The notes: a model not told the origin generated them from the letters alone. Counted from the stretch's first letter, positions 611 to 55,852 are shown. The stretch: 64,000 nucleotides of DNA from a bacterium (GCA_030431455.1 JAUIJE010000002.1:129294-193293), one strand, 5' to 3'. Made by a program: numbers and translations.

Positions 611-2865
611 GGCGCCACCTCCTCGTCGTGACGGTAGAGAAAGGCGTCGCTCTGGGCGAAGGCGCTGAGCATGTCGATGAACGATCCTTGTTCGTCGTAG
701 GCGGTCTCCATCGCGGTCAGGGTGCACGCATCGGCGGTGGTCTCGTTGCGGCCGGCGAAGAAGCGGAACGCCTGGCGGATAAAACATCGCTTGGCATGGT
801 TGGACTGGGCGAGGAGTTGGGACAGCTCCACCGCGTCCTGCACCGATGTGTTCAGCACCGGGTCGGGGGCGTTGTCGATGGTGCTCGTGCCGTCGGGAGC
901 GCCGCCATGGTCGGTGGCGCGCACGAAACCCGCGTGGTTGTAGACCTCGAACGGGTAGCCCAGCGAGTTCATTTGGCTGTGGCAGCCCATGCAGGTGACC
1001 GCGTCGGGGCCTTGTTCGACGCTCTCCACCAATCGGTCGCGGGCGGATTTGCCCGGGTCACTGGGCACGAGCTTGGCCTCGACCATCACCAGCTCAAGGT
1101 TGGGCACGTCTTCGCAGAGGAGGTTTTCGCGGATCCAATGTCCCCGGTGCACGATGCTCGCGTCGTCTTCAAAGTTGCCGCCGTGGGCCGCGAGCCAGGC
1201 GGGGTGGGTGAGCACCCCCGCGCGTTCGGCCGGGTCCATGTCCACCCAGCGGCCCGCGAAGGTATCGGGCACATTGACGTCGAGGTTGTAGGGCCGGTGC
1301 AGGTTGGTGATCGCCTTCCAGATCGAGCCCACGCAGTAGCCGTGATCACCGCAGGTGCCGGTGCATTGGCTGTCGTCGGTGCAGGCCCCGCCGTTGTTGG
1401 CCACCATGTTGGAGGGCAGACGCCAGGTGCGGGTGGTCAACAGATTGGCGAACACGTCGGTGTCGTCGATGACCACCTTGGCGATGGTGTCGTCGAGCTG
1501 CTCGTCGAGCAACGACTCGTCCGCGTAGTAGCCGGACAACAGGTTGTTGTACGAGGTGGTGACGTTGAAGTTGTTGTAGGCCGAGGTCGCGCCGGGGGTG
1601 TCCTTGAACTGGATGCGCACGTCGGTGTAGCCGAGCCACTCCCGGAAGAAGTCCACCACCCGGGAGGCGAGCCAGTATTCGCCCCGCGCGTTGCGTTTGC
1701 CGTCGAGCAGGTCGAACCGTTGCATGTCGACGCCGCCGACGTTGTTGCGCAACAGGGTGTCCATCACCGCGGGGTCGGTGATGGTGCCGTCGGCCGCGGC
1801 GGCCTTGATGTCGGGGAGGTAGCCCTCGGGGGGGGCGGTCCAGTTGGGGTGCACCGGGTGTTGGTTGTCGAACGCAAAGGTGCCCGACAAGCCCGGGGGC
1901 ACGCGGGAGATCAAGCTCGAGAGCGCCCGGGCGGTCTCCCATTCGTCCAGTCGTCGACGACCATCGGGGAGGGCCGCGCCCTTCCCGAGCTCGCTCTTGA
2001 ACAGCGCACCGGAGGTCAGCCACGCCGCCTGGGTGGTCAACGACAGGGTGTTGTCGCGTTGGGACACGTCGGTCTCGGCGGCGAGCGCGTCGGTCAAGAA
2101 CACCGCCAGCCGCGACCGTTCCTCGTCGGTGGGCGGGCGGAACAGCACCCCCTCTTCGAGGTACTTGTAGGTGTAGTAGTCAATGCACGCCGCGTCCGGT
2201 TGGGCGTCGTTCCACATGCAGTTGAGTGCATTGTCATTGTATACGGTGTAGGTGCGGACCCCGAGGTTGCCCCCGCTGCGCGCGACCCAGCCGGAGCCGG
2301 CCTCGGGCAGCACCGCGAGCAACAGGTCGAGGGTGGACTCGTCGAGGGACACGCCCTTGTCGTAGGTGGTGTACAGGTGCCGGCCGGGGGCATCGAGCGG
2401 GTTGTTGCGCACCTGGCTGCCGTACCAGGTCGGGGCGTTGGGCTTGTTGACGGTGTTGGTCCACTCCCGGCGCTCCATGCGCCGCAACCGCGCCGGTGAG
2501 CTGCCCGGGCTCCCGTCGCACACAAACAATGTGTCTTGGTTGAGCCAGTTGGGGTCCGGCTCGGGGGTCACGTCCCCGTCGCCATCGCCATCCCCGTCGC
2601 CTGACGAACCGGCGTCGACGGCTCCGCCGTCCGATGGTTCTTCCACGCCGCCGTCAGGCGGTCCGTCCCCGTCGCCGTCGCCGTCCCCGGGGCGGGCGGG
2701 GATGACGTCCCCATCGCCGTCCCCGTCGCCTGGTCCGTCCCCGTCACCGTCACCGTCACCGAGGTTGTTGACCCCGACCAGCGCGGTACAACCCCATTGC
2801 GGCCCAAAGGCCAACGTCAACCACAACCCGGTGGCGATCGCGCGCTTCACACTGACTCCCCTCAC
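607..2865 (-). CDS. Secreted or lipo-protein of the DUF1592/DUF1595/DUF1588 (PSCyt/PSD) type with a CxxCH motif and an N-terminal poly(Asp-Gly) linker.
   Basis: 752 aa ORF with a coding-like, non-low-complexity composition. N-terminus reads LTLAFGPQWGC followed by DGDGDG tracts. C-terminal region carries CMGCH, a heme-c-binding CxxCH motif typical of the Planctomycete-cytochrome-like domains found upstream of DUF1552 genes. Confidence 0.6.
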   Translation of the reverse strand: MRGVSVKRAIATGLWLTLAFGPQWGCTALVGVNNLGDGDGDGDGPGDGDGDGDVIPARPGDGDGDGDGPPDGGVEEPSDGGAVDAGSSGDGDGDGDGDVTPEPDPNWLNQDTLFVCDGSPGSSPARLRRMERREWTNTVNKPNAPTWYGSQVRNNPLDAPGRHLYTTYDKGVSLDESTLDLLLAVLPEAGSGWVARSGGNLGVRTYTVYNDNALNCMWNDAQPDAACIDYYTYKYLEEGVLFRPPTDEERSRLAVFLTDALAAETDVSQRDNTLSLTTQAAWLTSGALFKSELGKGAALPDGRRRLDEWETARALSSLISRVPPGLSGTFAFDNQHPVHPNWTAPPEGYLPDIKAAAADGTITDPAVMDTLLRNNVGGVDMQRFDLLDGKRNARGEYWLASRVVDFFREWLGYTDVRIQFKDTPGATSAYNNFNVTTSYNNLLSGYYADESLLDEQLDDTIAKVVIDDTDVFANLLTTRTWRLPSNMVANNGGACTDDSQCTGTCGDHGYCVGSIWKAITNLHRPYNLDVNVPDTFAGRWVDMDPAERAGVLTHPAWLAAHGGNFEDDASIVHRGHWIRENLLCEDVPNLELVMVEAKLVPSDPGKSARDRLVESVEQGPDAVTCMGCHSQMNSLGYPFEVYNHAGFVRATDHGGAPDGTSTIDNAPDPVLNTSVQDAVELSQLLAQSNHAKRCFIRQAFRFFAGRNETTADACTLTAMETAYDEQGSFIDMLSAFAQSDAFLYRHDEEVAP

Positions 2866-4408: not shown

Positions 4409-6136
4409 ATGACTGCCCTTTTGATCCGTCGCCTCGGTCTTTTTGTTCCCCTCGCGCTCGGGCTCGGCTGCCAGCCTGACGTGCACGAGGGGGTGATGGG
4501 CCAGCTCGGGCTCGAACACCCCGCGGCGGAGGCGCACGGCCTGGAGGTCTGTCCCGACGGCGAGACGTTGTTCGGCATCGACGTGTCCAAGTGGCAAGGC
4601 GACATCAACTGGGCCGCGGTCGCGGGCGACGGGGTCAAGTACGCCCAGATTCGGGTGTCGGACGGGCTCGCGGCCGAGGACCCGAAGTTTCAGCAGAACT
4701 GGGCCGGGGCCAAAGCCAACGGGGTGACCCGCGGGGTGTACCAGTTCTTCCGGTCCAACCAGGACCCCATCGCCCAGGCCGAGCACATGCTCGCGATCAT
4801 GGGCCCCCTCGAGCCCGGTGACCTGCCCCCGATGATCGACGTCGAGAGCACCGACGGACAGACCCCGGCCACCATCGCCACCAAGGTGGGCCAATGGATC
4901 GACCACGTCGAGGCGGTGCTCGGGGTGCAGCCGATCATCTACTCGGGCAAGTACTTCTGGCAGGACAACGTGCAGACCGAAGAGTTCGCCGGCTATCCCC
5001 TGTGGCACGCCCAGTACCCCCTGCAGAGCACGCCGGGCAACGACGACTGGATCGGCCGCTGTCCCAACATCGCCAACCAGTGGACCCAGTGGGCGTTCTG
5101 GCAATACGCCAGCACCGGGGCGGTGGCGGGCATCAACGGCAACGTCGACGTCAACCGCTTCAACGGCAATGCAGCGGCATTGGCCAACCTCACGGTGGGC
5201 GACCCGGTGTGTGGCGATGGCCTGTGCCACTTCAGCGAACAGGACGGGGTCTGCCCCGCGGACTGCCCGGTGTGCGAACCGGTGCCGGCGGCGGGCAAGA
5301 CCATCGAGGAAGATGACCTGTGTTTCTTCGGGGGCGGCAACCCCGTGTTCATTCGCGAGGTCGAAGACGCCGGCCACGGCGGAGCGATGAAGTGGACCGC
5401 GGTGTGGGTCAACGACACGCCGGCCAACTACGCGGAGTGGACGTTGATGTTCGACGAGGCGGGGCAATACGAGGTGGAGGTCTACACCGACACCGCCTAC
5501 GCCCAGTGGACGGGGGCGCCGTACCAAATCCAGCATGCAGATTCATTGGACACGGTGACGATCAACCAGACCGCCACCAGCGGTTGGCAGAGCCTGGGCA
5601 CGTTTGATTTCGCCGCCGGGGGCGAGCAATGGATCCTGCTCGGTGACAACACCCAGAACGCGGCCGAAGACGACCAACAAATCGCGTGGGACGCGGTGCG
5701 GCTCACCCGCGTGGACCTGCCGGGCGACGGCGACGGCGACGGCGATGGGGATGGGGATGGCGACGGCGATGGCGATGGCGATGGCGATGGCGACGGCGAC
5801 GGCGACGGCGATGGAGACGGCGACGGCGACGGCGATGGCGACGGCGACTGCCCGGCCGGCACCGTGGGGTGCGCCTGCGGCGAAGGCTGTGGCGAGGACT
5901 TGCTCTGCTTCAATGGCATTTGCACCGAGTTGAGCAGCGGCGACGGGGATGGCGACGGAGACGGAGATGGCGATGGGGATGGAGATGGAGATGGAGATGG
6001 AGATGGGGATGGCGACGGGGACGGAGACGACACCGAGCCGATGGCGTGTCGCTGCGTCGACGCCGGGGGCAGCCTGGTGCCGGGGCCGTTTTTGTGGGGG
6101 CTTTTGGTGTTCGTGACCCGCCGCCGCCGGCGCTGA
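4409..6136 (+). CDS. Glycoside hydrolase family 25 lysozyme (muramidase) lipoprotein with a C-terminal domain, two poly(Asp-Gly) tracts, a Cys-rich segment and a MYXO-CTERM-like sorting tail.
   Basis: ATG at 4409 is preceded by GGAGG and opens MTALLIRRLGLFVPLALGLGCQ, a lipobox. The GH25 hallmark FGIDVSKWQGDINW and the DVES motif are present. The C-terminus reads ...ACRCVDAGGSLVPGPFLWGLLVFVTRRRRR, a Cys motif plus hydrophobic stretch plus Arg-rich tail characteristic of MYXO-CTERM. Confidence 0.8.
   Translation: MTALLIRRLGLFVPLALGLGCQPDVHEGVMGQLGLEHPAAEAHGLEVCPDGETLFGIDVSKWQGDINWAAVAGDGVKYAQIRVSDGLAAEDPKFQQNWAGAKANGVTRGVYQFFRSNQDPIAQAEHMLAIMGPLEPGDLPPMIDVESTDGQTPATIATKVGQWIDHVEAVLGVQPIIYSGKYFWQDNVQTEEFAGYPLWHAQYPLQSTPGNDDWIGRCPNIANQWTQWAFWQYASTGAVAGINGNVDVNRFNGNAAALANLTVGDPVCGDGLCHFSEQDGVCPADCPVCEPVPAAGKTIEEDDLCFFGGGNPVFIREVEDAGHGGAMKWTAVWVNDTPANYAEWTLMFDEAGQYEVEVYTDTAYAQWTGAPYQIQHADSLDTVTINQTATSGWQSLGTFDFAAGGEQWILLGDNTQNAAEDDQQIAWDAVRLTRVDLPGDGDGDGDGDGDGDGDGDGDGDGDGDGDGDGDGDGDGDGDGDCPAGTVGCACGEGCGEDLLCFNGICTELSSGDGDGDGDGDGDGDGDGDGDGDGDGDGDGDDTEPMACRCVDAGGSLVPGPFLWGLLVFVTRRRRR
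5721..5848. repeat. (GACGGC)n microsatellite encoding a poly(Asp-Gly) linker. A second tract lies at 5939-6038.
   Basis: Direct hexanucleotide repeats visible in the sequence, translating to DGDGDG... inside the GH25 protein. Confidence 0.9.
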
Positions 6137-8840: not shown

Positions 8841-9055
8841 GGGCCCAGCATACCCGACCGGCGCGCGGCCCTCCGGGCTTCGTTTTCGCAAGGCCCCGCC
8901 TCGCTCAGGCCGCCGGGTCGCAGAGCGTCGGACGCGGGCCGTGTGCGGGAGCCCAGATCAGGTCCTGCCCGCGGCATGACAGGCCTCGGCGCGGGGATCG
9001 GCGTTCGACGACGTGGCCGCATGTGGTAACCCTCGGCAGCTTTTTGAGGTCCCCC

Positions 9056-10270
9056 ATGCAACGTGCGCTCGTCGTCTCCACCCTCGTTCTGCTCACCGCG
9101 GGCCACGCCTCGGCCTACAAGCTGCTCGGCGCCCCCTGGGACCCCAATCGCGGGCCGGTGCCGTACGTGATGCACCCCGACGGCAGCGATGACATCTCGG
9201 ACGGGAGCGACCTGCAGGCCATCCGCAACGCCATGGACCGCTGGACGTGTATGGAGGACGCCGCGCTGCGGTCCCGGGAGTACCCGGTGGAGCTCAACGA
9301 CCAGGGCGAGCCCACCGGGTTCAACATTTGGTGGGACGAGACCGGCCAAGAGATGATGGGCCCGTCCACCCTCGGGGTGGGCGGCGGGGACGGCGGGTCG
9401 GGGGTGGCCCGGCGGTCGGGGTTCATCATTTTCAACGGCCTCGACCACACCTGGACCAGTGACATTGGAGCCAACCCCTCGATGGTCGATGTCGAGAGCA
9501 TCGCGGTGCACGAAGGCGGGCACATGCTCGGTCTCGGCCACTCCTGCACCGACGACCAGGAGACGGACTGCCTGCCCGCCGACCAATCGGTGATGAACCC
9601 GACATATCCCGGCGGCAACGCCCAAGAGCTCAAGCAGGACGACATCGACGGCTTTTTGGCCATGTACGAAAAGACCGATCCCGCCGACAACTCCACCTGC
9701 GACGGGCCCTACCGCCACGGGGAAATCTGCGCCTGCAACGACGACTGCATCGAGGGCTTGAGCTGCGTGGCCCAGCTCGACGACACCCAGATCTGCTCCC
9801 CCGGGGGCTGCGACAGCGACAACATCGACGCCTGCGGCCCCGGCTTCAACTGCGTGCTCTCGGCCAAGCCCGACGACGAGACCCCCGCGCCCGGCACCTG
9901 CATCAAAGGCGTGAGCGGCCAAGCCGCGCCGCCGGGCACCGCGTGTGGATCCAGCGAGTTCATCTGCGGCAACCTGGACTGCACGCGCTCGGGCACCGCC
10001 GACGCCGATGTGTGCTTCAAGGGCTGCCAGGTCGACGACGACTGCGATCACGGCTACGTGTGCGCGGGCATCCTGTGTCTGCTCGACCCCGACCGGCTGT
10101 CCATCGAGTGCCCCAGCGGGGACGGGGACGGCGACGGCGATGGGGATGGCGACGGGGACGCGGACATGGGCGATGGCTGCGGCTGCACCGCCCAGGACAC
10201 CAACCAGGGCGCGCTGGCCTTCGCCGCCTTCCCGCTGCTGTGGGCGGTGGTGAGACGCCGCCGGCGCTGA
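9056..10270 (+). CDS. Matrixin/metzincin-like zinc metalloprotease with a Cys-rich C-terminal domain, poly(Asp-Gly) linker and MYXO-CTERM-like tail.
   Basis: Signal peptide MQRALVVSTLVLLTAGHASA. Zinc-binding HEGGHMLGLGHS (HExxHxxGxxH) followed by a Met-turn SVMNP. C-terminus reads GDGDGDGDGDGDGDADMGDGCGCTAQ...AFAAFPLLWAVVRRRRR. Confidence 0.8.
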   Translation: MQRALVVSTLVLLTAGHASAYKLLGAPWDPNRGPVPYVMHPDGSDDISDGSDLQAIRNAMDRWTCMEDAALRSREYPVELNDQGEPTGFNIWWDETGQEMMGPSTLGVGGGDGGSGVARRSGFIIFNGLDHTWTSDIGANPSMVDVESIAVHEGGHMLGLGHSCTDDQETDCLPADQSVMNPTYPGGNAQELKQDDIDGFLAMYEKTDPADNSTCDGPYRHGEICACNDDCIEGLSCVAQLDDTQICSPGGCDSDNIDACGPGFNCVLSAKPDDETPAPGTCIKGVSGQAAPPGTACGSSEFICGNLDCTRSGTADADVCFKGCQVDDDCDHGYVCAGILCLLDPDRLSIECPSGDGDGDGDGDGDGDADMGDGCGCTAQDTNQGALAFAAFPLLWAVVRRRRR

Positions 10271-13738: not shown

Positions 13739-15286
13739 TCAACCGCCAAAGATCTCAGGGTCGTAGCCGCCGCTGCAGTGACAGGCCCCGCTCGCCTCCA
13801 CCCACACATCGCTCAAAAGCTCGGTGCCCAACGCCTCGGCGCAGCAGGTGCGGCAGTCTTCTTCCGGGTCCAGCTTCCCCTGAATCGCCGCGGGGTCGAT
13901 GTCGCCGTCCGGGCACTTCACCTCCACGCCCAAACAGTGACATTTGTCTTCCTCGAACACCGACCCCTCGAGACAACACACCTCGCAGTCGGCCACCCCC
14001 GCCGCGTCTTGGTAACAGTGCGCGGCGTTGTCGAGGATCTCCTTGGCGCTGGGGGCATCCGACCCCCCGCACATCTCCCCGCACATCGACAAAAAGAAAA
14101 AACCCACAAACGCCACGATCGACAACAACGCCTTGATCGGGGTGTTGCTGCGGCTGGACTTTTCGAAATAGTCCATGTCGATGCCGAGGGCACAGGCCAC
14201 CAACACCGCGCGCTGGTCGACGTCAAAGCGGTCGGGGTCGGCGAACTCGATGCTGAAGTTGTCCGCGTCGGTGAAGGCCTCTTGCAGCAGGCCCGCGTGC
14301 TGTTTGGTGATGGCCCCGACCTCGGTCGTGGTGCCGGGCTGGACCAAGGGAAACTTCCAGACCCGGAAAAACCCCGCCTTCACCTGGGCGAACAGTTGGC
14401 CTTTGCCGTCGACGAGGTCGTACTGCCGCGACAGCAGCGCGAACTTTTTGCGCACCGCCCCCATCGGCCGCCCGGTGGCGCTTTCGTGCACCGTGGTCTG
14501 GGGCATCCAGAACGTGAACTTCCGCTCCGCCCGCGCCTGCGGCTGGCCTTGCGGGTCCTGCAGCGAGATCGACAGCGGCCGCCGGGCCCCGAGCACCTGC
14601 CGCAGGGCCACCCCGAGCACGCCCCCGCCCTCCTCGAGGGCGTGGCCGATGCCCGCCACCCCGGCGTCGATCTCGTAGTCGTTCTTTTGTTCGATCCCGA
14701 GCAGCTCGCCGGCCTTGCGGCGCTGGCGCAGCTCGATGCGGCCCGCTTGTCCCAAAAAGCCCATCGCCCCGCCCGCGCCCGCGGGTGCGAGCGGGGTCCC
14801 GTCGTCAAACGGGTCCGCCGCCCCCCCGTGCACCTCGACGTGGGCCCCGGGACGGTCGGGGGCCGGGCCCGCGGCCCCGGCGGGGCGGGCCACCGGGGTG
14901 GGCGCGTCGAGCTCGAGCCCGGAGCCGCCGCCGGTGACGAGCATCGGCGACAGCTCGGGCACCAACCGCTCGAGGTCGCCGGCGGCAAAACACGTCAGGC
15001 CGTCGGTGAGGCACGCATGGGTCTGCACCCCCTTGAGCAAGAAGCGTCGCATGCGCTGCTGGCACACCGGGCAGGACAAGGCGCTGGGCTGGCTTTGGTC
15101 GCGGGCGAGTGCACCCAATGTAGCTGCATCGATCCCGATGTGGGCGGTGACCTGCTTGGTCGCGTCCGCGGGGCAGACGTGGCTGCCGCAGCTCTGGCAT
15201 CCCCACGCCCCGACGGGGGCGCGGTTTTGCTCCCACTGGGTGCCCTGGCAGGTTGGACACAACGGACCGCTCACGATTCCCCCCAA
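13739..15286 (-). CDS. Zinc-ribbon / scramblase-like (tubby-fold) / transmembrane / Cys-rich modular protein.
   Basis: N-terminal CPTCQG...CQSCGSHVC and CPVCQQ...HAC are two zinc ribbons. Middle FTFWMPQTTVHESATGRPMGAVRKKFALLSRQYDLVDGKGQLFAQVKAGFFRVWKFPLV resembles PF03803 scramblase. Then a TM helix LLSIVAFVGFFFLSMCG and about 100 aa with 18 Cys. Confidence 0.5.
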   Translation of the reverse strand: MGGIVSGPLCPTCQGTQWEQNRAPVGAWGCQSCGSHVCPADATKQVTAHIGIDAATLGALARDQSQPSALSCPVCQQRMRRFLLKGVQTHACLTDGLTCFAAGDLERLVPELSPMLVTGGGSGLELDAPTPVARPAGAAGPAPDRPGAHVEVHGGAADPFDDGTPLAPAGAGGAMGFLGQAGRIELRQRRKAGELLGIEQKNDYEIDAGVAGIGHALEEGGGVLGVALRQVLGARRPLSISLQDPQGQPQARAERKFTFWMPQTTVHESATGRPMGAVRKKFALLSRQYDLVDGKGQLFAQVKAGFFRVWKFPLVQPGTTTEVGAITKQHAGLLQEAFTDADNFSIEFADPDRFDVDQRAVLVACALGIDMDYFEKSSRSNTPIKALLSIVAFVGFFFLSMCGEMCGGSDAPSAKEILDNAAHCYQDAAGVADCEVCCLEGSVFEEDKCHCLGVEVKCPDGDIDPAAIQGKLDPEEDCRTCCAEALGTELLSDVWVEASGACHCSGGYDPEIFGG

Positions 15287-15346
15287 CCAGGCGACGATAG
15301 GCCGAGCCCGGGGACGGGAGCAAGACGCGGACGGCCCGCCCGGGGG

Positions 15347-18300
15347 CTATTCCCGCAACACTTCGAGGCTGTAGCGGGTGAGCTCGCCCGTCGCGCTGTG
15401 GGTGGAGCGCACCTCCACGTAAAACCCCTCCCCCGGGTTGAGGTCGGGGGGGAGCACGGTGGTGTCGATGAGGTTGTTCTCGAAGGTCGCGACCACGGTC
15501 CCGGCCAGATCGAGCACCTTGACGGTGAGGTCGTGGACATCGTGCAGGCTGCTCGCCCGCACCCGGATGGTCTCCGCGGGGTCCAAGGCGGTGGCCAGGG
15601 TCACGCGGTACACATCGGGGTCGTCGGTGTTGCTCTGTCCCTGAACAAACAGTGGCAAGCTGGCGTCCTGCGCGCCGGCGATGTCGTCGTTGGGCTCTTG
15701 TTCCGCCGGGCCGAGGTTGCGCGCCACCTCCACCGCGTAGCTGTCGGGGCGGTTGGTCGACGAAAAGCCGTCGGGCACGATGGTGAAAAAGAGCTGATCG
15801 CCCGCCGGCAAGGGGTGCACCGCCTCGGCCGCGTAGTCCTCGACGTAGAAGGTCTCGGTGCCGTCGGGCTCATAGAGCCGGAGCTGGAAATCGCCGCGCT
15901 CGAGCTCGTTGTTGAAGCGCACCGAGAGGTGTTCGTCGGGGCTGGCGGGGGCGAGGAGGTCGACGCGGTAGGTGTCGATGTTGTTGCGGTTGTCCTGCCC
16001 CACCACCCGCACCGGGGCGGCGCCGAGGTGGAGCACGTGGGCGGAGACGAAGTCATCGTTGGGCTCTTGCTCGACGTCGTCTTGCAGGGACACGGACAGC
16101 TCGTAGAGATCGGGGGCCGAGGTGCTGTTGCCCTCGACCCGGAGCCGCACCGTCTCGGTGGCGGCCAGGGGAATGAACAGCACCGCGTCCTCGTGACGGC
16201 TGGTCTTGAGCTCTTGGCCGGCGTCGTCGATCCACGCGAGGTTGAGATCGGAGACGTCGGCGTCGTTGTGCAGCCGCACCCGGAGGTTCTGCCCCGGGGC
16301 GAGGGGGGCGGGGACGTCGAGGGTGAAGACGTCGGGCTCGCCCTTGATGCTCTGGCCCACCACCCGGTAAGGAAAGCTGGTGGTGGGGATGGGGTTGGCC
16401 GCGGCCACCACGTCGTTGGGCTCGAGTTCGGTGGCGTCGGTGACCCGCTCGACGTCGACCACGTACCGGAACTCGAAGTCGTCTTCGTTGCCCTCGAAGT
16501 CGAGGAAGAACGGCCCGGGTCCGTCGTGGGCAAACAGCCGCCAACGGGTCTGGCGCCGGGTGTTCACGCTGTAGAGTTCTTCGTCGAGCAGGTCCTTGAT
16601 GCGCAGCCGGGTGGCGGCGAGGGTGTCCAAGGCCTCGATGCGCACCTCGATGTACTCCCCCGGACCGAGGGCCGGGCTCGGCTCGAGCCGGTACACGTCG
16701 TGGAGGTTGTCGAGCAGGGTGCCGGTGAAGTGGGCGGGCAAGCTCTCGATGAGCTGGGCCGCGGCCACGGTGTCGTTGGGCTCGGCGTCGAACACCGGCG
16801 GCACCGGTCCCGCCTGCACCATGAGGGTCCACTCCCGCACCGGGGGGTTGGGGGGCTCGATCGCCACCGGGGTGATCAAGAAGTACAGCTCGGCGGGGGC
16901 CGCGTCGACGATCGCCCGGAGCCGGCCGGGCTCCTCCTCGGTGGCGTCGCGGATTTCGTGCAGCCGGCCCCGGGGGTCTTTTTGGTAGAGGATAAAATCG
17001 GGCATACCCGACAAGAAGCTGGTCTGGACCTCGAGCAACAGCGGCGCGCCCACGTCGATGCGGGTCCAGCTCGTGTCCGGCACATACCGCCCCGGCGACA
17101 GGTCGTCCCCGGTGGCGGAGAAGGCCACGTCCCCGTCGAGGTCGAAGGTGCCCGCGCCGCTGGCCGAGGTCGTGGTCACGGAAAAGCCCACCCACACATC
17201 GCTCTTGTCGCGGTTGACCGCGAGCCAGCGGTAGGTGCCCGCCTCGGGGGTCACCGCGTAGGCGGTGTCCCGGTCGAGGTCGTCCCAGGTGCCGATCACC
17301 CCGCTCGGCCCCACCAAGGTCGCCTGGGGCTGGTTGAGGTCGAGCAACACCGAGGTCAGGACCTGGCCCGCGGGGGCGTCAAACGCGAACACCTGGCCGC
17401 TCAGGCCCTCGATCTCCACCCGGGGCGCGGCCAAGGTCTCGTCGAGCCCCACCGCGCCCACCTCCTGGACCGTCATCCGGCTCACATCGACATCAAACGA
17501 AATGTCGAAGCCAAGCGAGGTCTGCCAATCCACCACCACCAAGAGCGCGCCCGCGGCCGAGGCCCACGCCCCTTGCACCAGGGCGTAGACATCATCGTCC
17601 TCCTCGAGCACGACCTCCTCGAGGAACGCCCCCTCGGGGGAGAACAGCAACAGCGCCGGCACGGTGGCGACGTCCTCCGCCTCAAAGCTGAGCAGCAGCC
17701 CCGCGGGTTCGGTGGACGACAGGGCAAAGAAGTTGTCGTCGAGGCCGAGCAGCTGCCCGGAGGCGCTCACCGTCTCCCCCGCCCCCCCGGGCAACAGTTC
17801 CTGCGGGGTGGGGGGCATGACCTCCTCGACGACGCCGATGTACGCAAAGTCCGGGTCGCCGATGAGCGGGGCCGCGTCGGGGTCGGCGATGACCGCCACC
17901 GGGGCGATGGTGAGCACATAGGGCCCGTCGTAGGGGAGCACCACCTCCCGCTCGGGTTCGCTCACCACCCCGAGGCGCGAGGTCCGCACGTAGCCTTCGG
18001 GCCCCTCGAGGCGGAACGCGGGCTGGGGCAGCCCCGCGTCGAAGATCTTGATGCGCAGGTACTGCCCCGCCACCCCGTCGAACGTCCACTGGTCGATGTC
18101 CTGCTCGACCACGTCGTCCCCGTCGAGGTCCACCGGCCGGCCGATGACCCCGGTGAAGATCAGGCTGTCGCCCACCGGCTCGAGCACCAATGTCTCTGGA
18201 CTCCCCCCGTAGGCGGGGTCGTTCATGTCCGGCACGCTCTCGGTGGCGTCCGCGTCCCCGGCGAGGATGTCGTCCTCGGACAGACAAAGGCCCGCGCTCG

Positions 18301-18823
18301 CGAACAGGCCCGGTCCGCACACCACGTCCGGCGTGCACAGGTGGGTGAGCGGGTGGTAGGTGGTGCCGGTGCCGCAGTTGTCGACGGGGACGCATTCCCC
18401 GCTGGCGTCGTCGAAGGTGGTGCCCTCACCGCACTGGGTGGTGTCGAGGCAGTCGCCGGTCACGGGGTCGGGGGTGGTGCCGTCGCCGCAGGTGAACAGC
18501 GGGAGGCACTGCCCGGTGGACGGGTCGAGTTCGGTGCCTTCACCACAGGTGGCTTCGGGCACACACTCCCGTGCACTGGCATTGTAGACGGTGCCCGGGC
18601 CACAGGTGGCCAGGGGTCGACACTCCCCGGTGGCTTCGTCGAGGGAGGTGCCCGGTCCGCACACCACCGGGACCAGGGTCGAGACGCACGCCCCGTCCTC
18701 GGCCCGGGTGTCCTCGCCGCAGAGCACCCCGTCCCCCGATGGGCACGCGCCGAACAGGGCTGCGGCGGGGAGCAGCGCGGCCAGGGACAAGAGGCGGGCG
18801 GTCATGGTCTTTTGGTCGGTCAT
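15347..18823 (-). CDS. Very large secreted protein with N-terminal Myxococcus-type Cys-rich repeats (CGxGT...C) followed by multiple pre-peptidase C-terminal (PPC)-like domains.
   Basis: ATG at 18823 is preceded by GAGGAG and opens a signal peptide MTDQKTMTARLLSLAALLPAAALFGAC. Repeats of about 13 aa of the form ...CGPGT.....C..... occur. Several EPNDxxxxA modules (EPNDTVAAAQ, EPNDVVAAAN, EPNDDFVSAH, EPNDDIAGAQ) mark PPC domains. Confidence 0.7.
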   Translation of the reverse strand: MTDQKTMTARLLSLAALLPAAALFGACPSGDGVLCGEDTRAEDGACVSTLVPVVCGPGTSLDEATGECRPLATCGPGTVYNASARECVPEATCGEGTELDPSTGQCLPLFTCGDGTTPDPVTGDCLDTTQCGEGTTFDDASGECVPVDNCGTGTTYHPLTHLCTPDVVCGPGLFASAGLCLSEDDILAGDADATESVPDMNDPAYGGSPETLVLEPVGDSLIFTGVIGRPVDLDGDDVVEQDIDQWTFDGVAGQYLRIKIFDAGLPQPAFRLEGPEGYVRTSRLGVVSEPEREVVLPYDGPYVLTIAPVAVIADPDAAPLIGDPDFAYIGVVEEVMPPTPQELLPGGAGETVSASGQLLGLDDNFFALSSTEPAGLLLSFEAEDVATVPALLLFSPEGAFLEEVVLEEDDDVYALVQGAWASAAGALLVVVDWQTSLGFDISFDVDVSRMTVQEVGAVGLDETLAAPRVEIEGLSGQVFAFDAPAGQVLTSVLLDLNQPQATLVGPSGVIGTWDDLDRDTAYAVTPEAGTYRWLAVNRDKSDVWVGFSVTTTSASGAGTFDLDGDVAFSATGDDLSPGRYVPDTSWTRIDVGAPLLLEVQTSFLSGMPDFILYQKDPRGRLHEIRDATEEEPGRLRAIVDAAPAELYFLITPVAIEPPNPPVREWTLMVQAGPVPPVFDAEPNDTVAAAQLIESLPAHFTGTLLDNLHDVYRLEPSPALGPGEYIEVRIEALDTLAATRLRIKDLLDEELYSVNTRRQTRWRLFAHDGPGPFFLDFEGNEDDFEFRYVVDVERVTDATELEPNDVVAAANPIPTTSFPYRVVGQSIKGEPDVFTLDVPAPLAPGQNLRVRLHNDADVSDLNLAWIDDAGQELKTSRHEDAVLFIPLAATETVRLRVEGNSTSAPDLYELSVSLQDDVEQEPNDDFVSAHVLHLGAAPVRVVGQDNRNNIDTYRVDLLAPASPDEHLSVRFNNELERGDFQLRLYEPDGTETFYVEDYAAEAVHPLPAGDQLFFTIVPDGFSSTNRPDSYAVEVARNLGPAEQEPNDDIAGAQDASLPLFVQGQSNTDDPDVYRVTLATALDPAETIRVRASSLHDVHDLTVKVLDLAGTVVATFENNLIDTTVLPPDLNPGEGFYVEVRSTHSATGELTRYSLEVLRE

Positions 18824-18833
18824 GGCGCGCTCC

Positions 18834-21800
18834 TCAATCCAACACGTTGACGTCGAGGATGTACTCATCGGACGCGTCGCTCTCGGCCCCGTCCTGCGAA
18901 ATCTCGACGTAGTAGGTGCCCGCCCCGGGGGGCGTGATGTTGACCCACACCCGGAAGCCCTGCCCGGTGTAGAGCTCGGCGAAGCTCTCATCGCGCAGGG
19001 TCACGCGGATGTTGCTCCCGTCCGAGAGGTTCTCCATGCGCAGCCGGTAGTCTTCGGTCCCGTCGACCACGACCTCGTAGACGTCGGCGTCGCCGGGGCG
19101 GACCATGCCGTAGATCGCGCCCGGCACCACAAAGCCATTGGACGAGGCCGCGTCTTGATTAGGCTCGCGTTCGCACCGGCCGCCGGCTTGGAGCTTGAGC
19201 CGGTAGCGGTCCTGGCCGCTCCCCGCCCCGGTGACCACCACCGAGAACGGCCCGGTGCTGCCCACCGGGAGCGCGTCGACGAGAAAACTCGTCGCGCTCT
19301 CGTCCACCGCGAGCAGGTTGGCGGTGTCGGGGTCGGGACCGTCGTAGAGCCGCACGAGGTTCTGGGAGTTGTCGTCCACGTTGATCACGCTCAGGCGCAA
19401 GGAGCTGTCCTCGGACAAGGGCGCGGCCAGCGCGAAGGTCCACACGTCGTCGTCAGCGTCGGTGGCGTAACCGTACACCTCGTGGCCCAGGTCGAGGTCG
19501 ACCTCGCCCAGGTCTTCGGCGAAGCCGGTGCCGTTGGGTTCGGACTCGGTCCCCGGGCCGGTGTCGACGTCGACCTGGTACACGAATTCGCCCCCCGATG
19601 AGCCGCTCACGATCACGGTGTAGACCCCCGCGGGCAGGTCGGGCACGTGCACCACGTTGAGCTCGGCCTCGTGGTAGCCGACCACGGTGCCGTCCGCGCT
19701 CTGTACGGTGACGTCGAGGTCGTTGGCGTTTTCAAAGTTGCGCGCGGTCACCCACAAAGACTCGTCGGGGCCCAGCGAGGCGGGCAGGTCGAAGGTAAAG
19801 ACATCGTCACCGCCGCCCTCCTCGCGGTAGCCGATCACCGACGCGGGCAACGGGCCCATGTGGTCGGCGTCCGAGAGGTCGTTGTTGGGTTCGACCTCGA
19901 CCGGCACGTCGGCCACGTCGAGGGTGATGACGTAGGGGCTCTCGGTGGTGATGAACTGCCCGTACACCTCGATGTGGTACAGCCCCGGCCCGTGGTAGCT
20001 CGCCACGTAGGTGCTGGTGTTGACCCCCAGCGTGCCCGGGGCGCTGTCGGGGTCGGGGATCGACGACAGGGGCAGGAAGTTCTGGTCGAGGACGCGGACC
20101 GCGACCCCGTCGGTGATGAAGCCAAAGCCGTTGTCGCTCTCCATGTTGTCGAAGTGCACCCGCAGCGATTGGTGGGGCTCGAGCTGGTCGAGCAGCTCGA
20201 AGGAGTAGACGTCGATCTCGTCGTCGTCGATGAAGCCGCGGAACTGGGCGAGCTCGCCCCCGAGGGGGACCGCGTTTTGTTTGACGTCGTTGGGCTCGAT
20301 GTCCCGGAAGATCGGCAGCTCGTGCACGGTGGCGGTGAGCGACCAGTCGAGCAAGGCGTGGTCGTCGGCGTCGAGCTCGATGAGCAAGGGGCGGGGGTCG
20401 CGGTTGACGATGTACAGCGGCCGGTCGAGCTGGGGCCGGTGCACGCGCCGGAGCTGCACCCCGTCGATGGAATACACCGCGATGTCCGGGTCGCCGGCGA
20501 GGATGTCGAGGTCAAAGCCCAGCATCGAGGACACCGGGGCCTCGACCACCAAGAACGCACGCTCGAACCCGTCAAAGCCATAGACCAGGTCATCGCCCGC
20601 GACCGTCCCGGTGGGGTTGGCGGCGAGGTCGAGGGCCCCGAGGTCGTAGGGGGTCTGCAGGGTCATCACGATGCCCACCCCGGTGTCGTCCGCGGGGCTG
20701 TCGTTGAACACGAAGAACACATACTCACCGTTGTCGGCGAGGAAGAAGAACTCGTCGTCGTCGAGGACCAGGGCCCGGCTGCCCCCCGGCCCCACCACCT
20801 GCACGTCGGGGTTGAACAGCCCGGTGCCGTGGATGTCCACGCTCACCACCTGCCGCGCCGCGGTGGTGATGCGGTAGGCGCCGGCGGTGAAGCCGGACAC
20901 GTCGAGGGTGTCGGTGGACGAGCTGGCGTCGGGCTGCACCGCCCCGCGGTTGACCAAGGGCACGATGTGCATGTTCACGGTGATGTCGTCGACCGGCCCG
21001 GTGGAGGTGCGCCAATCGAGCACCACCGTGGCCTCCCCGAGCCCCTTGACGTACACCCCCACAAAGTCGTCCTCCTCGATGACCTGGCGCTCGGACACCA
21101 GCTGCCATTGGCTGTTGAACACCAACACCGACGGCAGCGTCTCCGCGGACACGTTCTCGAAGGTCAACAGCACCGCCGCCCCGGTGAAGGTCTCGATGCC
21201 AAAGAAGTTGTCGCTGAGGTTCTTGAGGTTGAAATCGATGCTTGTGGGATTGAGGAAGTCAGCCCCGGGGTTGTGGTTGGGCACCCCGGGGGTGGCGATC
21301 TCGGTGATGCGGATGACGTAGCCCGCCTCGGGGTCGCCCAGGGGCACCCCCGAGGTCAAAAACGCGCTCGGGACCACGGTGAGCTCGTAGCGGCCGTCCC
21401 GGGGCAAGATCACCTCCCGCTTGGCCTCGGCCTCGTAGCCCACCGATGAGCTGCGCAGGTATTCGCCCGGCCCCTCGAGGGTGAACACCGGCGCGGGCAA
21501 CCCCAAGGACAGCACCTCGATGCGGTAGTAGCCGCCGCTTTGCCCCTCGAACGCCCACACGTCCCGGTCCTGGGTCAACGTGCCGTTGCCGGCCACGTCG
21601 GCGGGCCGGCCGATGACCCCGGTGAGCACCGTCTCGCCGTCGTCCGCGAGGGTGACCATCTCGGGCGTGCCCCCGTACAAGGGGTCGTTGTGGTCGGGGG
21701 TCGACTCGACAAAGTCCGCCCCGAGGGCGAGGCCTTGGTTGGGCCCCACGCACTGCCCGTCGAACAGCACCTGGCCCGGGCCGCAGGCCAAGGTGGACTC

Positions 21801-22259
21801 GCACAGCCCGCTGTCCGGGTTGAGGGTGGCCCCGGGGGCGCAGGGAAAGTCCGCTTCGCAGTCGTCGGTGAGCGGGTTGAAGGTCGTGCCCGCGCCGCAG
21901 GTGCGCACCGGCAAACACACGTGGGTGTCGGGGTCGGCGTAGGTGCCGGGGCCACACACCACGTCGGGGGTGCAGGTGTTGGTGGCGAGGTCGAGGAACG
22001 TGCCCGGGCCACACTCGGCCTCGGGCTCGCACACCCCGCCCATGAGCACGGTGCCCTCCCCGCAGGCGGTGAGGGGCTCGCACTCGAATGTCTCTGGATT
22101 GAGCAAGGTGCCTTCGCCGCACCGGGTGTCGGTGGCGTCGGCCACGCACACCCCGTTTTGCAACGTGGTGCCCGCCCCGCAGGTGTCGACCTGCGGGCCA
22201 CACGCGCTCACCGCCACGAACACGACGCTCCACCGAAGAGCGTGGGTTGCCATCCGCAT
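18834..22259 (-). CDS. Very large secreted protein and paralogue of the downstream gene, with Cys-rich repeats plus PPC-like domains.
   Basis: 1141 aa with signal MRMATHALRWSVVFVAVSACGP, CG.GT repeats, and EPNNDLSDADHMGP / EPNGTGFAEDLG / EPNQDAASSNGF modules. The stop lies 11 nt before the next start. Confidence 0.7.
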   Translation of the reverse strand: MRMATHALRWSVVFVAVSACGPQVDTCGAGTTLQNGVCVADATDTRCGEGTLLNPETFECEPLTACGEGTVLMGGVCEPEAECGPGTFLDLATNTCTPDVVCGPGTYADPDTHVCLPVRTCGAGTTFNPLTDDCEADFPCAPGATLNPDSGLCESTLACGPGQVLFDGQCVGPNQGLALGADFVESTPDHNDPLYGGTPEMVTLADDGETVLTGVIGRPADVAGNGTLTQDRDVWAFEGQSGGYYRIEVLSLGLPAPVFTLEGPGEYLRSSSVGYEAEAKREVILPRDGRYELTVVPSAFLTSGVPLGDPEAGYVIRITEIATPGVPNHNPGADFLNPTSIDFNLKNLSDNFFGIETFTGAAVLLTFENVSAETLPSVLVFNSQWQLVSERQVIEEDDFVGVYVKGLGEATVVLDWRTSTGPVDDITVNMHIVPLVNRGAVQPDASSSTDTLDVSGFTAGAYRITTAARQVVSVDIHGTGLFNPDVQVVGPGGSRALVLDDDEFFFLADNGEYVFFVFNDSPADDTGVGIVMTLQTPYDLGALDLAANPTGTVAGDDLVYGFDGFERAFLVVEAPVSSMLGFDLDILAGDPDIAVYSIDGVQLRRVHRPQLDRPLYIVNRDPRPLLIELDADDHALLDWSLTATVHELPIFRDIEPNDVKQNAVPLGGELAQFRGFIDDDEIDVYSFELLDQLEPHQSLRVHFDNMESDNGFGFITDGVAVRVLDQNFLPLSSIPDPDSAPGTLGVNTSTYVASYHGPGLYHIEVYGQFITTESPYVITLDVADVPVEVEPNNDLSDADHMGPLPASVIGYREEGGGDDVFTFDLPASLGPDESLWVTARNFENANDLDVTVQSADGTVVGYHEAELNVVHVPDLPAGVYTVIVSGSSGGEFVYQVDVDTGPGTESEPNGTGFAEDLGEVDLDLGHEVYGYATDADDDVWTFALAAPLSEDSSLRLSVINVDDNSQNLVRLYDGPDPDTANLLAVDESATSFLVDALPVGSTGPFSVVVTGAGSGQDRYRLKLQAGGRCEREPNQDAASSNGFVVPGAIYGMVRPGDADVYEVVVDGTEDYRLRMENLSDGSNIRVTLRDESFAELYTGQGFRVWVNITPPGAGTYYVEISQDGAESDASDEYILDVNVLD

Positions 22260-22273
22260 CGCTTCGCCTCCGC

Positions 22274-28110: not shown

Positions 28111-28442
28111 GATGTGAGGTCCTTCAGCAGCAGATGCCTACAGGTCGGGCGATGTAGGATTTCGTACTCTGCTTTTCGGGCATGGCTCAAGGAAAGGGAG
28201 CTGAACTCTCCTGAAACAAATCAAACACCGTGTCATGGCCTGATTCGTCAATAGTTATAGATACTTACGAGAGCCTTTGCGCGGCTCAGATCCAGGTGCC
28301 CAGGGGGCGCCGACCGCCCAGACGCTGGCCGAGAGCGAAAGGCTTCTCGGCCGGATCGCGGGGTTGGCCCGTCGGGCGCGGGCTGCCCCGGACCCGGACA
28401 ACCCCGATGCGGGACTCGAATTGCCGGTACAGTGAGCGGACC

Positions 28443-34696: not shown

Positions 34697-34773
34697 GGTG
34701 GCTGTAGCTCAGTTGGTAGAGCACTGGATTGTGATTCCGGGAGTCGCGGGTTCAAGCCCCGTCAGCCACCCCA
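34697..34773 (+). tRNA. tRNA-His (anticodon GTG) with an encoded G-1 and CCA.
   Basis: GGTGGCTGTAGCTCAGTTGGTAGAGCACTGGATTGTGATTCCGGGAGTCGCGGGTTCAAGCCCCGTCAGCCACCCCA is a near-identical architecture to E. coli tRNA-His, with a cloverleaf, a 7-nt anticodon loop TTGTGAT and the T-arm GGTTCAAGCCC. Confidence 0.85.
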
Positions 34774-34948
34774 AACAACGTCCCGCGTGAGCGGGACGTT
34801 TTTTGTGGGGGCTGACGGGGCGCAGCCCGTCCCTCCTCGAAGAGGAGGCCAGCCACACCCAAACAACGTCCCGCGTGAGCGGGACGTTTTTTGTGGGGGC
34901 TGACGGGGCGCAGCCCGTCCCTCCTCGAAGAGGAGGCCAGCCACACCC
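34773..34948. repeat. Perfect 88-bp tandem duplication (34773-34860 and 34861-34948) immediately 3' of tRNA-His. Each unit carries an intrinsic terminator and a tRNA-3'-end-like CCAGCCACACCCAAA motif.
   Basis: The two units are identical when read side by side. A degenerate third copy (CACAACCCAAACACGTCCCGCGGAAGCGGGC) lies at about 35192-35225. Confidence 0.9.
34777..34804 (+). terminator. Rho-independent terminator, GC stem AACGTCCCGC/GCGGGACGTT with loop GTGA then T6. A second identical copy lies at 34865-34892.
   Basis: Perfect 10-bp stem plus U-tract directly after the tRNA. Confidence 0.8.
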
Positions 34949-34953
34949 AAATG

Positions 34954-34982
34954 AAAGCTCCGCTTCGGCGGAGCTTTTTTTT
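34954..34982 (+). terminator. Third rho-independent terminator, AAAGCTCCGC-TTCG-GCGGAGCTTT followed by T8.
   Basis: Perfect 10-bp stem with a tetraloop and U-tract. Confidence 0.8.
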
Positions 34983-50028: not shown

Positions 50029-50092
50029 GCCCTCGTATATACAAGACGACCGCCGCCTCTCCTAGGCGGGGTCTTTTGTCCAGGAGCGCCGC

Positions 50093-53950: not shown

Positions 53951-53953
53951 CGC

Positions 53954-55819: not shown

Positions 55820-55852
55820 GGCCGGGCGAGTATAGCGACCGGGGGGGGCGGC

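Follow-up and report, generated by a model that had tools for sequence, protein, structure and literature searches.

A stretch of 64,000 nucleotides (nt) from a bacterial contig (GCA_030431455.1, JAUIJE010000002.1:129294-193293; hereafter, the window) contains four genes in which hexanucleotide repeats of the form GGNGAY are read as unbroken (Gly-Asp)n peptides, referred to below as GD tracts. These genes encode a glycoside hydrolase family 25 (GH25) lysozyme, an M10 (matrixin-type) metalloprotease, a DUF1588/DUF1585 protein, and a small CxxCH protein that carries the longest tract, (GD)43, and in all four (4/4) the tract adjoins a cysteine that is probably a lipid anchor (Table 1). An earlier note, made from the sequence of the window, had counted at least five secreted proteins with such repeats; the number is four because two of the intervals it listed (5721-5848 and 5939-6038) belong to the one lysozyme gene, and its interval of 10128-10183 was slightly off, the actual tract occupying 10118-10159. 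The host is most plausibly a member of the Myxococcota, judging from the best matches, which were metagenome-assembled genomes of Nannocystaceae, Kofleriaceae, and Sandaracinaceae (among the matches listed) and proteins of Enhygromyxa. A scan of genome contigs revealed no close relative, the best match reaching 50% identity over segments that together cover most of the query among the matches listed, and exact-sequence look-ups returned no record of the matrixin, the (GD)43 protein, or the lysozyme (the last taken from a start at 4214).

Table 1. Positions in the window of the GD tracts, the genes that carry them, associated sequence features, and matching short-read contigs
Feature	Position	Strand	Basis or remark
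DUF1588/DUF1585 (PSCyt3/PSD2) protein gene, 752 aa	607-2865	-	PF07627, 66.9 bits; PF07624, 50.2 bits
(GD)5, (GD)4, (GD)4, (GD)4	2572-2601, 2665-2688, 2707-2730, 2737-2760	-	DUF1588/DUF1585 gene; Pro/Gly/Val-containing spacers between
GH25 muramidase gene, 575 aa	4409-6136	+	Pfam, AlphaFold2 model, homologue alignments
(GD)21	5723-5848	+	First linker segment of the GH25 lysozyme
Six-cysteine mini-module, 30 aa, CPAGTVGCACGEGCGEDLLCFNGICTELSS (CPAGTVGCACGEGCGEDLLCFNGIC...)	5849-5938	+	Between both GD tracts of the lysozyme
(GD)15	5939-6028	+	Second linker segment of the GH25 lysozyme
C-terminal sorting tail, DTEPMACRCVDAGGSLVPGPFLWGLLVFVTRRRRR	6029-6133	+	Cys motif, transmembrane helix, Arg cluster; treated as divergent MYXO-CTERM
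M10 (matrixin-type) zinc metalloprotease gene, 415 aa, secreted	9023-10270	+	Cys-rich modules, GD linker, MYXO-CTERM tail
(GD)7	10118-10159	+	M10 matrixin, directly upstream of the GCGC motif
MYXO-CTERM sorting domain, GCGCTAQDTNQGALAFAAFPLLWAVVRRRRR	10172-10267	+	TIGR03901, TIGR03382
Probable lipoprotein gene, 324 aa	36510-37484	-	Open reading frame and sequence
45-bp tandem repeat, x3	36902-37037	-	Tandem Repeats Finder, period 45, 86% matches; encodes DAGLPDVIDLPDAGL repeats
(GD)43	37083-37340	-	Longest tract: 258 nt, 86 residues without interruption; small CxxCH lipoprotein (probable)
Short-read contigs L080-L084	5983-10153, 10126-21984, 10504-13819, 37287-48646, 37287-44596		Public sequencing runs

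The repeat stands out clearly from its background. The pattern (GGNGAY)4 matched the window 79 times, always within GD tracts, against 0 matches in 100 dinucleotide-preserving shuffles, so that the repeat observation is real, and the proposal that these hexanucleotides code for Asp-Gly was borne out by six-frame translation. The only other hit in the window was a trivial (DG)3 at 24626-24643. Tandem Repeats Finder (TRF) reported period-6 arrays at 2579-2601, 2663-2761, 5723-5848, 5948-6027, 10117-10165, and 37083-37340. The gene set was defined from a listing of open reading frames (ORFs) together with a screen of GC content at third codon positions (GC3), and the tracts lie in frame between Pfam domains and tails. 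Readings of the tracts as Ser-Pro, Arg-Arg, or Val-Ala in other frames were rejected because the GD frame alone is continuous with the Pfam domains and has a gene-like GC3 pattern. Scans for tRNA genes and Rfam families gave no match related to the tracts. Within-tract differences are all synonymous and confined to the third position (GGC, 50; GGG, 31; GGA, 14; GGT, 8; GAC, 69; GAT, 34), and the 34 GAT codons compare with 0 GAR (Glu) codons. The (GD)21 tract uses 18 GGC, 2 GGG, 1 GGA, 12 GAC, and 9 GAT codons, and (GD)15 includes 7 GGA and 9 GAT codons, the longest perfect run being 29 nt in each; 36 of the 86 codons (42%) of (GD)43 are non-majority synonyms.

The lysozyme is organized as a signal peptide with a lipobox-like Cys21, a GH25 domain (residues 57 to 242), a CBM6-like beta-sandwich corresponding to Golvesin_C (residues 336 to 434), a linker (residues 439 to 540), and a MYXO-CTERM-like tail. 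Judged by its profile score, conserved acidic residues, and predicted barrel fold, the protein is a GH25 enzyme (Chalaropsis-type muramidase): it scored 148.4 bits against Glyco_hydro_25 (PF01183; cut-off, 27) and 56 bits against Golvesin_C in Pfam, residues D58, D144, E146, and D247 are invariant in homologue alignments, and an AlphaFold2 model built from 53 sequences (predicted local distance difference test [pLDDT] score, >90 over most of residues 50 to 440) resembled Streptomyces cellosyl (1jfx; TM-score, 0.87; root mean square deviation, 2.2 Å in Foldseek). The same model also matched phage GH25 endolysins, with its second domain resembling CBM6-type carbohydrate-binding modules. The start at 4409 agrees with the N-termini of the homologues, and the N-terminal segment, MTALLIRRLGLFVPLALGLGC, contains the lipobox-like sequence LALGLGC. 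Of 120 GH25 homologues, 74 likewise have an N-terminal signal peptide that terminates in [AGS]-Cys. The GH25 plus Golvesin_C family often has both an N-terminal Cys signal and a C-terminal MYXO-CTERM tail, and its enzymes may be lipid-anchored at both ends.

The GD tracts of the lysozyme are predicted to form a disordered linker. AlphaFold2 assigned a pLDDT below 50 and no secondary structure over most of residues 441 to 558, which agrees with the earlier suggestion that the tracts encode linkers, and a helix was modeled at residues 561 to 574. The motif of the six-cysteine mini-module that separates the two tracts was found in none of the 120 GH25 homologues. Similar CxC...C...C...C motifs were seen in 9 of the 92 GD-lipoproteins recovered by database search (see below), and the (GD)43 protein has one following its lipobox.

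The second enzyme likewise belongs to an established family. It scored 41.2 bits against Peptidase_M10 (PF00413; cut-off, 24), and its HExxHxxGxxH motif (H163, E164, H167, G170, and H173) and M191, the probable Met-turn residue, are invariant in 13 orthologues; by the Pfam profile and the zinc motif, the protein at 9023-10270 is a member of peptidase family M10 (matrixin, metzincin). Its N-terminus, MVTLGSFLRSPMQRALVVSTLVLLTAGHASA/YK, is that of a signal peptide. Both enzyme assignments of the earlier note therefore hold at the level of Pfam scores (148 bits for Glyco_hydro_25 and 41 bits for Peptidase_M10).

The two remaining proteins carry the tract at the other end. The DUF1588/DUF1585 protein has an N-terminal signal peptide ending in Gly-Cys, followed by a GD-rich linker of approximately 75 residues, and its homology begins at query residue 61 to 108 in 19 of the 22 homologues examined. 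Those homologues have N-terminal extensions of 16 to 473 residues ahead of the conserved region, and the extensions hold lineage-specific acidic repeats (GE, AD, DT, or DAGLDAG). The (GD)43 protein consists of a signal peptide with the lipobox LVASLGC, a small Cys-rich module, (GD)43, DAGLPDV repeats, and a C-terminal CxxCH domain with a weak match to Cytochrome_CBB3 in Pfam; the 45-bp tandem repeat lengthens its acidic linker. Residues 162 to 297 of this protein, comprising the CxxCH domain and the DAGL repeats, align (E = 3e-8) with protein P0228, in which the matching N-terminal CxxCH domain is fused to DUF1588/DUF1585; P0228 is itself a homologue, at 58% identity, of the DUF1588 protein of the window. 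The (GD)43 and DUF1588 proteins, lying 34 kb apart, look like a split version of one architecture.

The anchoring signals were assigned by inspection in the case of lipoboxes and by inspection and homologue alignment in the case of signal peptides. On the N-terminal side, the anchor Cys would be that of LVASLGC in the (GD)43 protein and FGPQWGC in the DUF1588 protein, with the tracts beginning shortly after the signal peptide; LVASLGC and the LALGLGC of the lysozyme fit a PROSITE-type lipobox. On the C-terminal side, the tracts of the lysozyme and the matrixin stand just ahead of the tail (GCGC in the matrixin). The idea that the repeats neighbor MYXO-CTERM signals thus applies to these two enzymes but not to the two other proteins, in which the tract is N-terminal and follows a lipoprotein-type signal peptide. 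As had been noted, both enzymes end in a Cys motif, a hydrophobic stretch, and RRRRR before the stop codon, and this tripartite architecture, in which no spacer separates the Cys motif from the helix, lies at the extreme C-terminus of each. A search with the TIGR03901 model supported MYXO-CTERM membership for the matrixin (21.6 bits for the full protein and 28.7 for the tail alone; cut-off, 20), as did TIGR03382 (19.8 and 26.9 bits; cut-off, 15.85), but the lysozyme gave no match. TIGR03901 matched 74 of 109 lysozyme-homologue tails at E <= 0.01, and Cys547 of the lysozyme occupies the one invariant column of 110 aligned tails (109 homologues plus the query) and a nearly invariant column in a second alignment. 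A profile of the 109 homologue tails, from which the query was excluded, scored the lysozyme tail at 23.3 bits, whereas 2000 composition-matched shuffles scored no higher than 8.5, and the same profile gave the unrelated matrixin tail 35.3 bits. The lysozyme tail is therefore treated, on sequence grounds, as a divergent MYXO-CTERM signal below the curated threshold. Cys-dependent cleavage, lipidation, and surface display dependent on the type II secretion system have been demonstrated for TraA and MXAN_4924 in Myxococcus xanthus (PMC11980579). The GD proteins are probably lipidated and may be surface-exposed, and the lysozyme and the matrixin may have a role in predation.

The earlier note had described the repeats as hypermutable microsatellites and the longest, of about 250 nt, as near-perfect. 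Near-perfection holds for the peptide but not for the DNA, in which TRF found 81% matches over the 258 nt and perfect runs do not exceed 29 nt. The longest perfect period-6 run in any tract was 29 nt (4.8 units), and that in the 258-nt tract was 23 nt; no tract has five or more identical units in succession, and synonymous interruptions recur every 1 to 4 units. Adjacent-unit identity ranged from 0.17 to 0.50 across tracts, with 0.19 in (GD)43. When Gly and Asp codons were shuffled within each tract as a null for codon order, lag-1 codon identity was 0.45 versus 0.45 in (GD)43 and 0.70 versus 0.61 and 0.50 versus 0.40 in the other long tracts, none of these differences being significant, and, with correction for the number of lags, no periodicity emerged in the three long tracts over distances of up to 16 units (family-wise p = 0.41, 0.69, and 0.89). 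Higher-order periods of 18 and 42 nt reported by TRF were rejected, the codon-shuffle test being non-significant at every lag. The share of GAT among Asp codons was 32% in tracts versus 10% in the other genes of the window (p = 1e-10), and that of GGA among Gly codons was 15% versus 4% (p = 3e-5); with rare codons enriched approximately 3-fold, repeat purity is lower than genome codon usage alone would give. The three longest tracts contain exact in-register repeats of 23 to 44 nt, and the sole trace of duplication is a 44-nt segment of (GD)43 that recurs exactly inside this tract (p = 0.007 versus shuffles). The tracts do not appear to be actively slipping, and their DNA does not fit an active microsatellite: it is impure, neighboring units are not homogenized, rare codons are enriched, and, as described next, relatives that are 99.5 to 99.7% invariant differ by no linker change. 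The claim of hypermutability was accordingly not upheld.

The claim that linkers differ by in-frame units, in contrast, was supported between close relatives, namely within clusters of other GD-lipoproteins and of lysozyme homologues. Among clusters of GD-lipoproteins with at least 90% identity, the gap columns that fell in the GD linker numbered 10 of 10 (the remaining columns of this cluster being 98.9% invariant), 19 of 19, 2 of 2, 22 of 28, and 26 of 36, and lengths changed in steps of a single GD unit or a single GDGDGDxS block; no linker change was seen in two clusters with 99.5 to 99.7% invariance. Homologue pairs at 78 to 87% identity also differ by unit indels in the linker, and in one cluster of lysozyme homologues a linker built of PVTPTD/PVTPDE units occurs as three length alleles. 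At greater distance, the five closest matrixin orthologues (48 to 55% identity) retain a tract of GD units at the corresponding site of the alignment, approximately 2.5 to 5 of them versus 7 here, and more distant orthologues have Pro/Glu/Asp-rich segments or almost nothing at that site. In 84 GH25 plus Golvesin_C proteins (83 homologues and the lysozyme of the window, all with both landmarks present), the segment from the last domain to the tail Cys spans 15 to 326 residues (median, 43) and is usually acidic and nearly devoid of Lys and Arg, often with GE, GD, AD, GS, or PG dipeptides. These alignments suggest that the linkers change length over strain and species divergence, faster than the surrounding sequence gains indels, and nothing suggests within-clone switching.

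Short-read data from public runs of the same organism agreed with the window. The five contigs from ERR3420974, ERR3428548, and SRR24442552 (Table 1) matched it at 100% identity; all but one of them start or end within a GD tract (5983, 10126, 10153, and 37287), entering it by 34 to 54 nt with an identical synonymous pattern. The far end of contig L080, as its full extent implies, lies in the 90-bp MopE repeat described below. Because short-read contigs stop inside the tracts, short-read assemblies give no copy number, and genes with GD tracts are likely to be missing or truncated in short-read protein catalogues.

The layout extends well beyond this genome. When the (GD)43 protein was used as the query, 92 further proteins were recovered, several of them named from Enhygromyxa (including Enhygromyxa salina), plus one lysozyme homologue that was already known. 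These 92 proteins carry unrelated Pfam domains (phosphatase, glycoside hydrolase, CAP, and sulfatase-modifying-factor types), and 91 have a GDGD-rich segment, in which Pro, Ser, or Thr typically separates runs of (GD)3-5; 74 of the 91 have a hydrophobic run and a Cys within the first 50 residues, the segment starting a median of 23 residues after the Cys. A metagenome scan for (GGNGAY)12 yielded at least 120 DNA stretches with 126 tracts of up to 102 units, and 61 of those tracts, among the matches listed, lie in contigs with a GC content of at least 0.60. Of these high-GC tracts, again among the matches listed, 41 of 61 are scrambled (adjacent-unit identity, <0.7), and 33 of the 47 that could be classified fall within 120 residues after a signal-plus-Cys motif, with 1 of 47 standing before a MYXO-like tail. 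The longest among the matches listed, at 1654-2265 of metagenome contig Ga0209021_1007887 (L138; 64% GC), is an unbroken (GD)102 of 612 nt, with 7 hexamer variants and an adjacent-unit identity of 0.26, downstream of the lipoprotein-signal-like ...FLLNACGGGGGDS.

The tracts are nevertheless unevenly distributed. We surveyed dipeptide runs of at least 5 units in 56 high-GC loci (957 kb, the 64-kb window among them), and no GD run of 5 or more units was present in the approximately 893 kb contributed by other high-GC relatives, which indicates that pure GD runs of great length characterize particular lineages. The idea that GD tracts are common to all Myxococcota was rejected, as the survey found almost no dipeptide runs outside the window; the metagenome scan shows that the feature is nonetheless widespread. 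A search of one literature library for Gly-Asp, GD, or DG repeats, which is no proof of novelty, returned only unrelated uses (dg repeats of fission yeast and a GD insertion in OmpK36), and no description of GD linkers in myxobacteria was found in it.

The nearest counterpart with respect to function and layout is the Ser-Asp R region found in MSCRAMM proteins of staphylococci (ClfA, SdrC/D/E, and Fbl), an acidic X-Asp dipeptide of tens of units that stands directly upstream of a C-terminal tripartite sorting signal, has repeats differing mostly at synonymous sites, and differs in length among relatives. Ser-Asp regions contain many synonymous variants of an 18-bp unit, and range from 9 to 52 repeats between strains, and that of Fbl kept its copy number through 30 subcultures (PMC6533592). 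The Ser-Asp portions of NCBIfam MSCRAMM models do align to the GD tracts, but this is not homology, the hidden Markov model scores being 7 to 40 bits against cut-offs of 999 to 2500 and limited to the repeat region; matches to MSCRAMM_Sdr/Clf, ser_rich_anae_1, and TrAA12 were rejected as low-complexity and far below cut-offs. The dipeptide here is Gly-Asp rather than Ser-Asp, no 18-bp higher-order unit was detected in the tracts, half of them are N-terminal, and the anchor is a probable lipidated Cys (MYXO-CTERM or lipobox) in place of LPXTG and sortase. Since the host would be a diderm myxobacterium, the GD stalk, unlike that of MSCRAMMs, would not span a thick cell wall.

With the MYXO-CTERM/myxosortase (MrtX) system, the lysozyme and the matrixin share the invariant Cys, the transmembrane helix, the Arg cluster, and the N-terminal signal peptide (PMC11980579). 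Hydrolases are an established substrate class of this system (NCBIfam NF041905, NF038112, and NF045638), whose known members for comparison include TraA, MXAN_4924, and curated myxosortase-dependent metalloprotease and phytase families. The lysozyme differs in that its tail begins ACRC..., has a Pro-rich transmembrane segment, and falls below detection by the curated models, and neither enzyme belongs to a curated myxosortase-dependent family (NF041905, 22.5 bits; cut-off, 250). A repeat linker upstream of the MYXO-CTERM motif is not mentioned in PMC11980579 (terms "linker" and "repeat") or in 10.1101/2023.06.07.544157 (term "linker"). The layout of the (GD)43 and DUF1588 proteins, and of most database GD-lipoproteins, is that of Gram-negative lipoprotein linkers: about half of the outer membrane lipoproteins of E. 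coli have a disordered segment directly after the lipidated Cys, and the authors of that study regard disorder as critical for lipoprotein sorting (bioRxiv 10.1101/2021.01.05.425367). Compared with the E. coli linkers, the GD tracts are pure dipeptides with extreme negative charge, far longer (up to 86 residues here and 102 units in a metagenome) and more regular. The GlyGly-CTERM/rhombosortase system, represented by VesB of Vibrio cholerae, also places a secreted hydrolase on a diderm surface through a C-terminal tripartite tag; its signature motif and enzyme family differ, and no dipeptide-repeat stalk is noted in the excerpt of the source that describes it.

Contingency loci of Haemophilus, Neisseria, and Campylobacter are homogeneous tetranucleotide or homopolymer tracts, the units of which are usually not multiples of three and therefore mediate on/off switching. 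The GD tracts resemble them as short tandem repeats in coding regions of surface-associated proteins, with slippage as the presumed source of unit gain and loss, but differ in that the hexamers stay in frame, are interrupted synonymously every few units, and are not homogenized between neighbors.

Collectively, our data make it probable that the GD tracts are acidic, disordered, anchor-proximal spacers comparable to staphylococcal Ser-Asp stalks and slowly variable in length between strains and species. According to this model, (GGNGAY)n would encode a disordered polyanionic spacer with one negative charge per two residues, each spacer lying between a globular domain and a Cys that is probably lipid-anchored to the membrane, namely, in two proteins, the +1 Cys of a lipoprotein-type signal peptide at the N-terminus and, in the lysozyme and the M10 protease, the MYXO-CTERM signature Cys. 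Such a spacer could hold the catalytic domain at a distance from the membrane surface. In-frame duplication of single hexamers or of blocks of them is the probable origin of the tracts, and units may still be gained and lost between strains and species, the peptide presumably being kept constant by selection while synonymous changes scramble the DNA; a constant peptide over scrambled DNA would place the tracts among slowly varying tandem repeats like the Ser-Asp stalks and not among contingency loci. We infer that selection acts on the GD peptide because the runs of 86, 42, and 30 residues are unbroken and no Glu codon stands beside the 34 GAT codons. Several observations weigh against this model. 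The count of zero non-synonymous changes is partly circular because the tract limits were set by the end of the GD pattern. The lipobox of the DUF1588 protein, FGPQWGC, is non-canonical, with a misfit at position -2; the lysozyme matched neither TIGR03901 nor TIGR03382, whether the full protein or tails of 36, 95, and 49 residues were used; and no myxosortase or CPBP-family gene was present among the ORFs scanned in the 64-kb window. Indels in metagenome-derived clusters could include assembly errors, and, by analogy with Ser-Asp regions, which are equally scrambled and yet range from 9 to 52 repeats (PMC6533592), synonymous scrambling alone would be compatible with strain-level polymorphism. 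A generic spacer also leaves unexplained why the same dipeptide occurs in four unrelated proteins of one genome; together with its absence as long runs from approximately 893 kb of relatives' loci, this points to a lineage-specific mutational or selective bias.

The explanation originally offered, that the tracts are hypermutable slipped-strand hotspots of contingency type, with frequent linker-length variants inside populations that adaptively adjust how far surface enzymes reach, appears improbable. It can draw on in-frame hexamers in which unit changes are tolerated, on the GD and GDGDGDxS indels among proteins of other organisms with at least 90% identity and in lysozyme-homologue clusters, on the 44-nt block repeat as evidence of at least one past duplication, and on the in-register exact repeats of 23 to 44 nt, which could support misalignment. 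Yet the tracts lack runs of five identical units, their neighbors are no more alike than shuffled codons, the roughly 3-fold excess of rare synonymous codons lowers their purity, the matrixin tract has been kept at one site over approximately 50% divergence with only about 2.5 to 7 units, nearly invariant clusters show no linker change, and the analogous Fbl Ser-Asp region is stable in subculture (PMC6533592). An artifact of assembly or sequencing, by which the repeats would be misassembled or artificially expanded, has a negligible probability: short-read contigs of the same organism do end inside the tracts and so give no cross-check of length, but the contigs from three independent runs are identical to the window and reproduce its synonymous pattern for 34 to 54 nt into the tracts, every tract keeps its frame between bona fide domains, and comparable tracts recur in many independent metagenomes.

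Two further explanations concern the peptide itself. A specific polyanion module, in which Gly-Asp chemistry is itself selected for Ca2+/Mg2+ binding or as a repulsive brush, is rather unlikely, although it would account for the strict GD composition without Glu, Ser, or Pro over 86, 42, and 30 residues, for the one dipeptide in four unrelated proteins when long runs are missing from 893 kb of relatives, for the GD character kept at the orthologous matrixin site, and for the recurrence of tracts of up to 102 units in environmental high-GC contigs; proposed roles include holding enzymes off the negative outer membrane, binding mineral or prey, and responding to marine divalent cations. Homologues of the same enzymes use GE, AD, GS, PG, DP, non-repetitive acidic, or 15- to 30-residue linkers, so that the exact GD chemistry is not required for enzyme function, and no cation-binding domain model matches the tracts, the MSCRAMM and TrAA12 matches being low-complexity and far below cut-offs. 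The alternative that the tracts are neutral low-complexity expansions in structure-free regions, a by-product of a lineage-specific replication or repair bias, is very unlikely. Homologue linkers of 15 to 326 residues without fixed composition, the apparently lineage-specific occurrence of long pure GD runs, and the lack of structure in the AlphaFold2 model are what it would lead one to expect; it would also predict that non-synonymous changes erode the tracts as rapidly as synonymous ones do, whereas 42% non-majority codons coexist with no amino-acid interruption in 86 residues and 34 GAT codons with 0 GAR codons. Adjacency to an anchor Cys, which holds for 4/4 proteins in the window and, among the matches listed, for 34 of the 47 metagenome tracts that could be classified, argues against it as well.

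The spacer model that we favor might be extended, although the extended form is less likely than not. In it, long, codon-scrambled, polyanionic Gly-Asp tethers would be a distinct, undescribed class beside a lipid-anchored Cys at either terminus of envelope proteins of Myxococcota, especially marine Nannocystineae-like ones; selection would act on their chemistry itself, which might, for instance, form a brush that responds to cations or is repelled by charge and so keeps lytic enzymes away from the cell's own envelope; their length, heritable and different between strains, would set the working distance of predatory hydrolases, and they would be under-represented in short-read catalogues.

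Other features of the window were noted alongside the GD genes. A tRNA-His gene (34698-34773, plus strand) is directly followed by an 88-bp tandem repeat (34763-34990; 2.6 copies), the unit of which starts with a near-copy of the tRNA 3' end (CAGCCACaCCCA) and holds an intrinsic-terminator hairpin, with terminator-like sites at 34777, 34865, and 34953; this repeat could be a duplicated terminator or what an integration event at the tRNA left behind. Very large ORFs, the products of which are probably secreted, follow one another over 13739-28137 on the minus strand. Among them, 22274-25948 encodes 10 MopE-type putative metal-binding motifs (PF11617), the source of a 90-bp repeat at 23321-23545, and a PPC domain, another ORF has ASH/HYDIN-type Ig domains, and 13739-15346 has a Scramblase domain. 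The small protein encoded at 38969-39406 (minus strand), with a hydrophobic signal-like N-terminus and a His-rich acidic repeat, GEHEHEHGDAGEHHHDGDAGEHGHGDAGE (TRF arrays at 39211-39337), has no Pfam match and, from its composition, may bind metal. Genes of lipid and secondary metabolism at 49117-63442, unrelated to the GD finding, encode two KAS III-type synthases, a carboxyltransferase, an AMP-binding enzyme, a fatty-acid hydroxylase, a GH3-family (auxin-amido-synthetase-type) adenylating enzyme, a TetR regulator, and an MFS transporter.

Neither the sorting system nor the enzyme families nor the concept of a disordered linker is new, and our analysis adds no new mechanism; the sequence rule stated below is apparently undescribed. 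A perfect peptide repeat with scrambled codons is a natural example of the strategy by which synthetic repeat genes are stabilized. As a practical warning, genes with GD tracts are probably under-represented in short-read catalogues. If the spacer model is correct, an acidic dipeptide run beside a lipobox or MYXO-CTERM Cys would flag lipid-tethered, stand-off envelope proteins in Myxococcota, and the GH25 muramidase and the M10 protease would be two candidate surface-tethered prey-lysing enzymes. The stalk principle of Gram-positive Ser-Asp adhesins would thereby be extended to diderm predators and to both protein termini.

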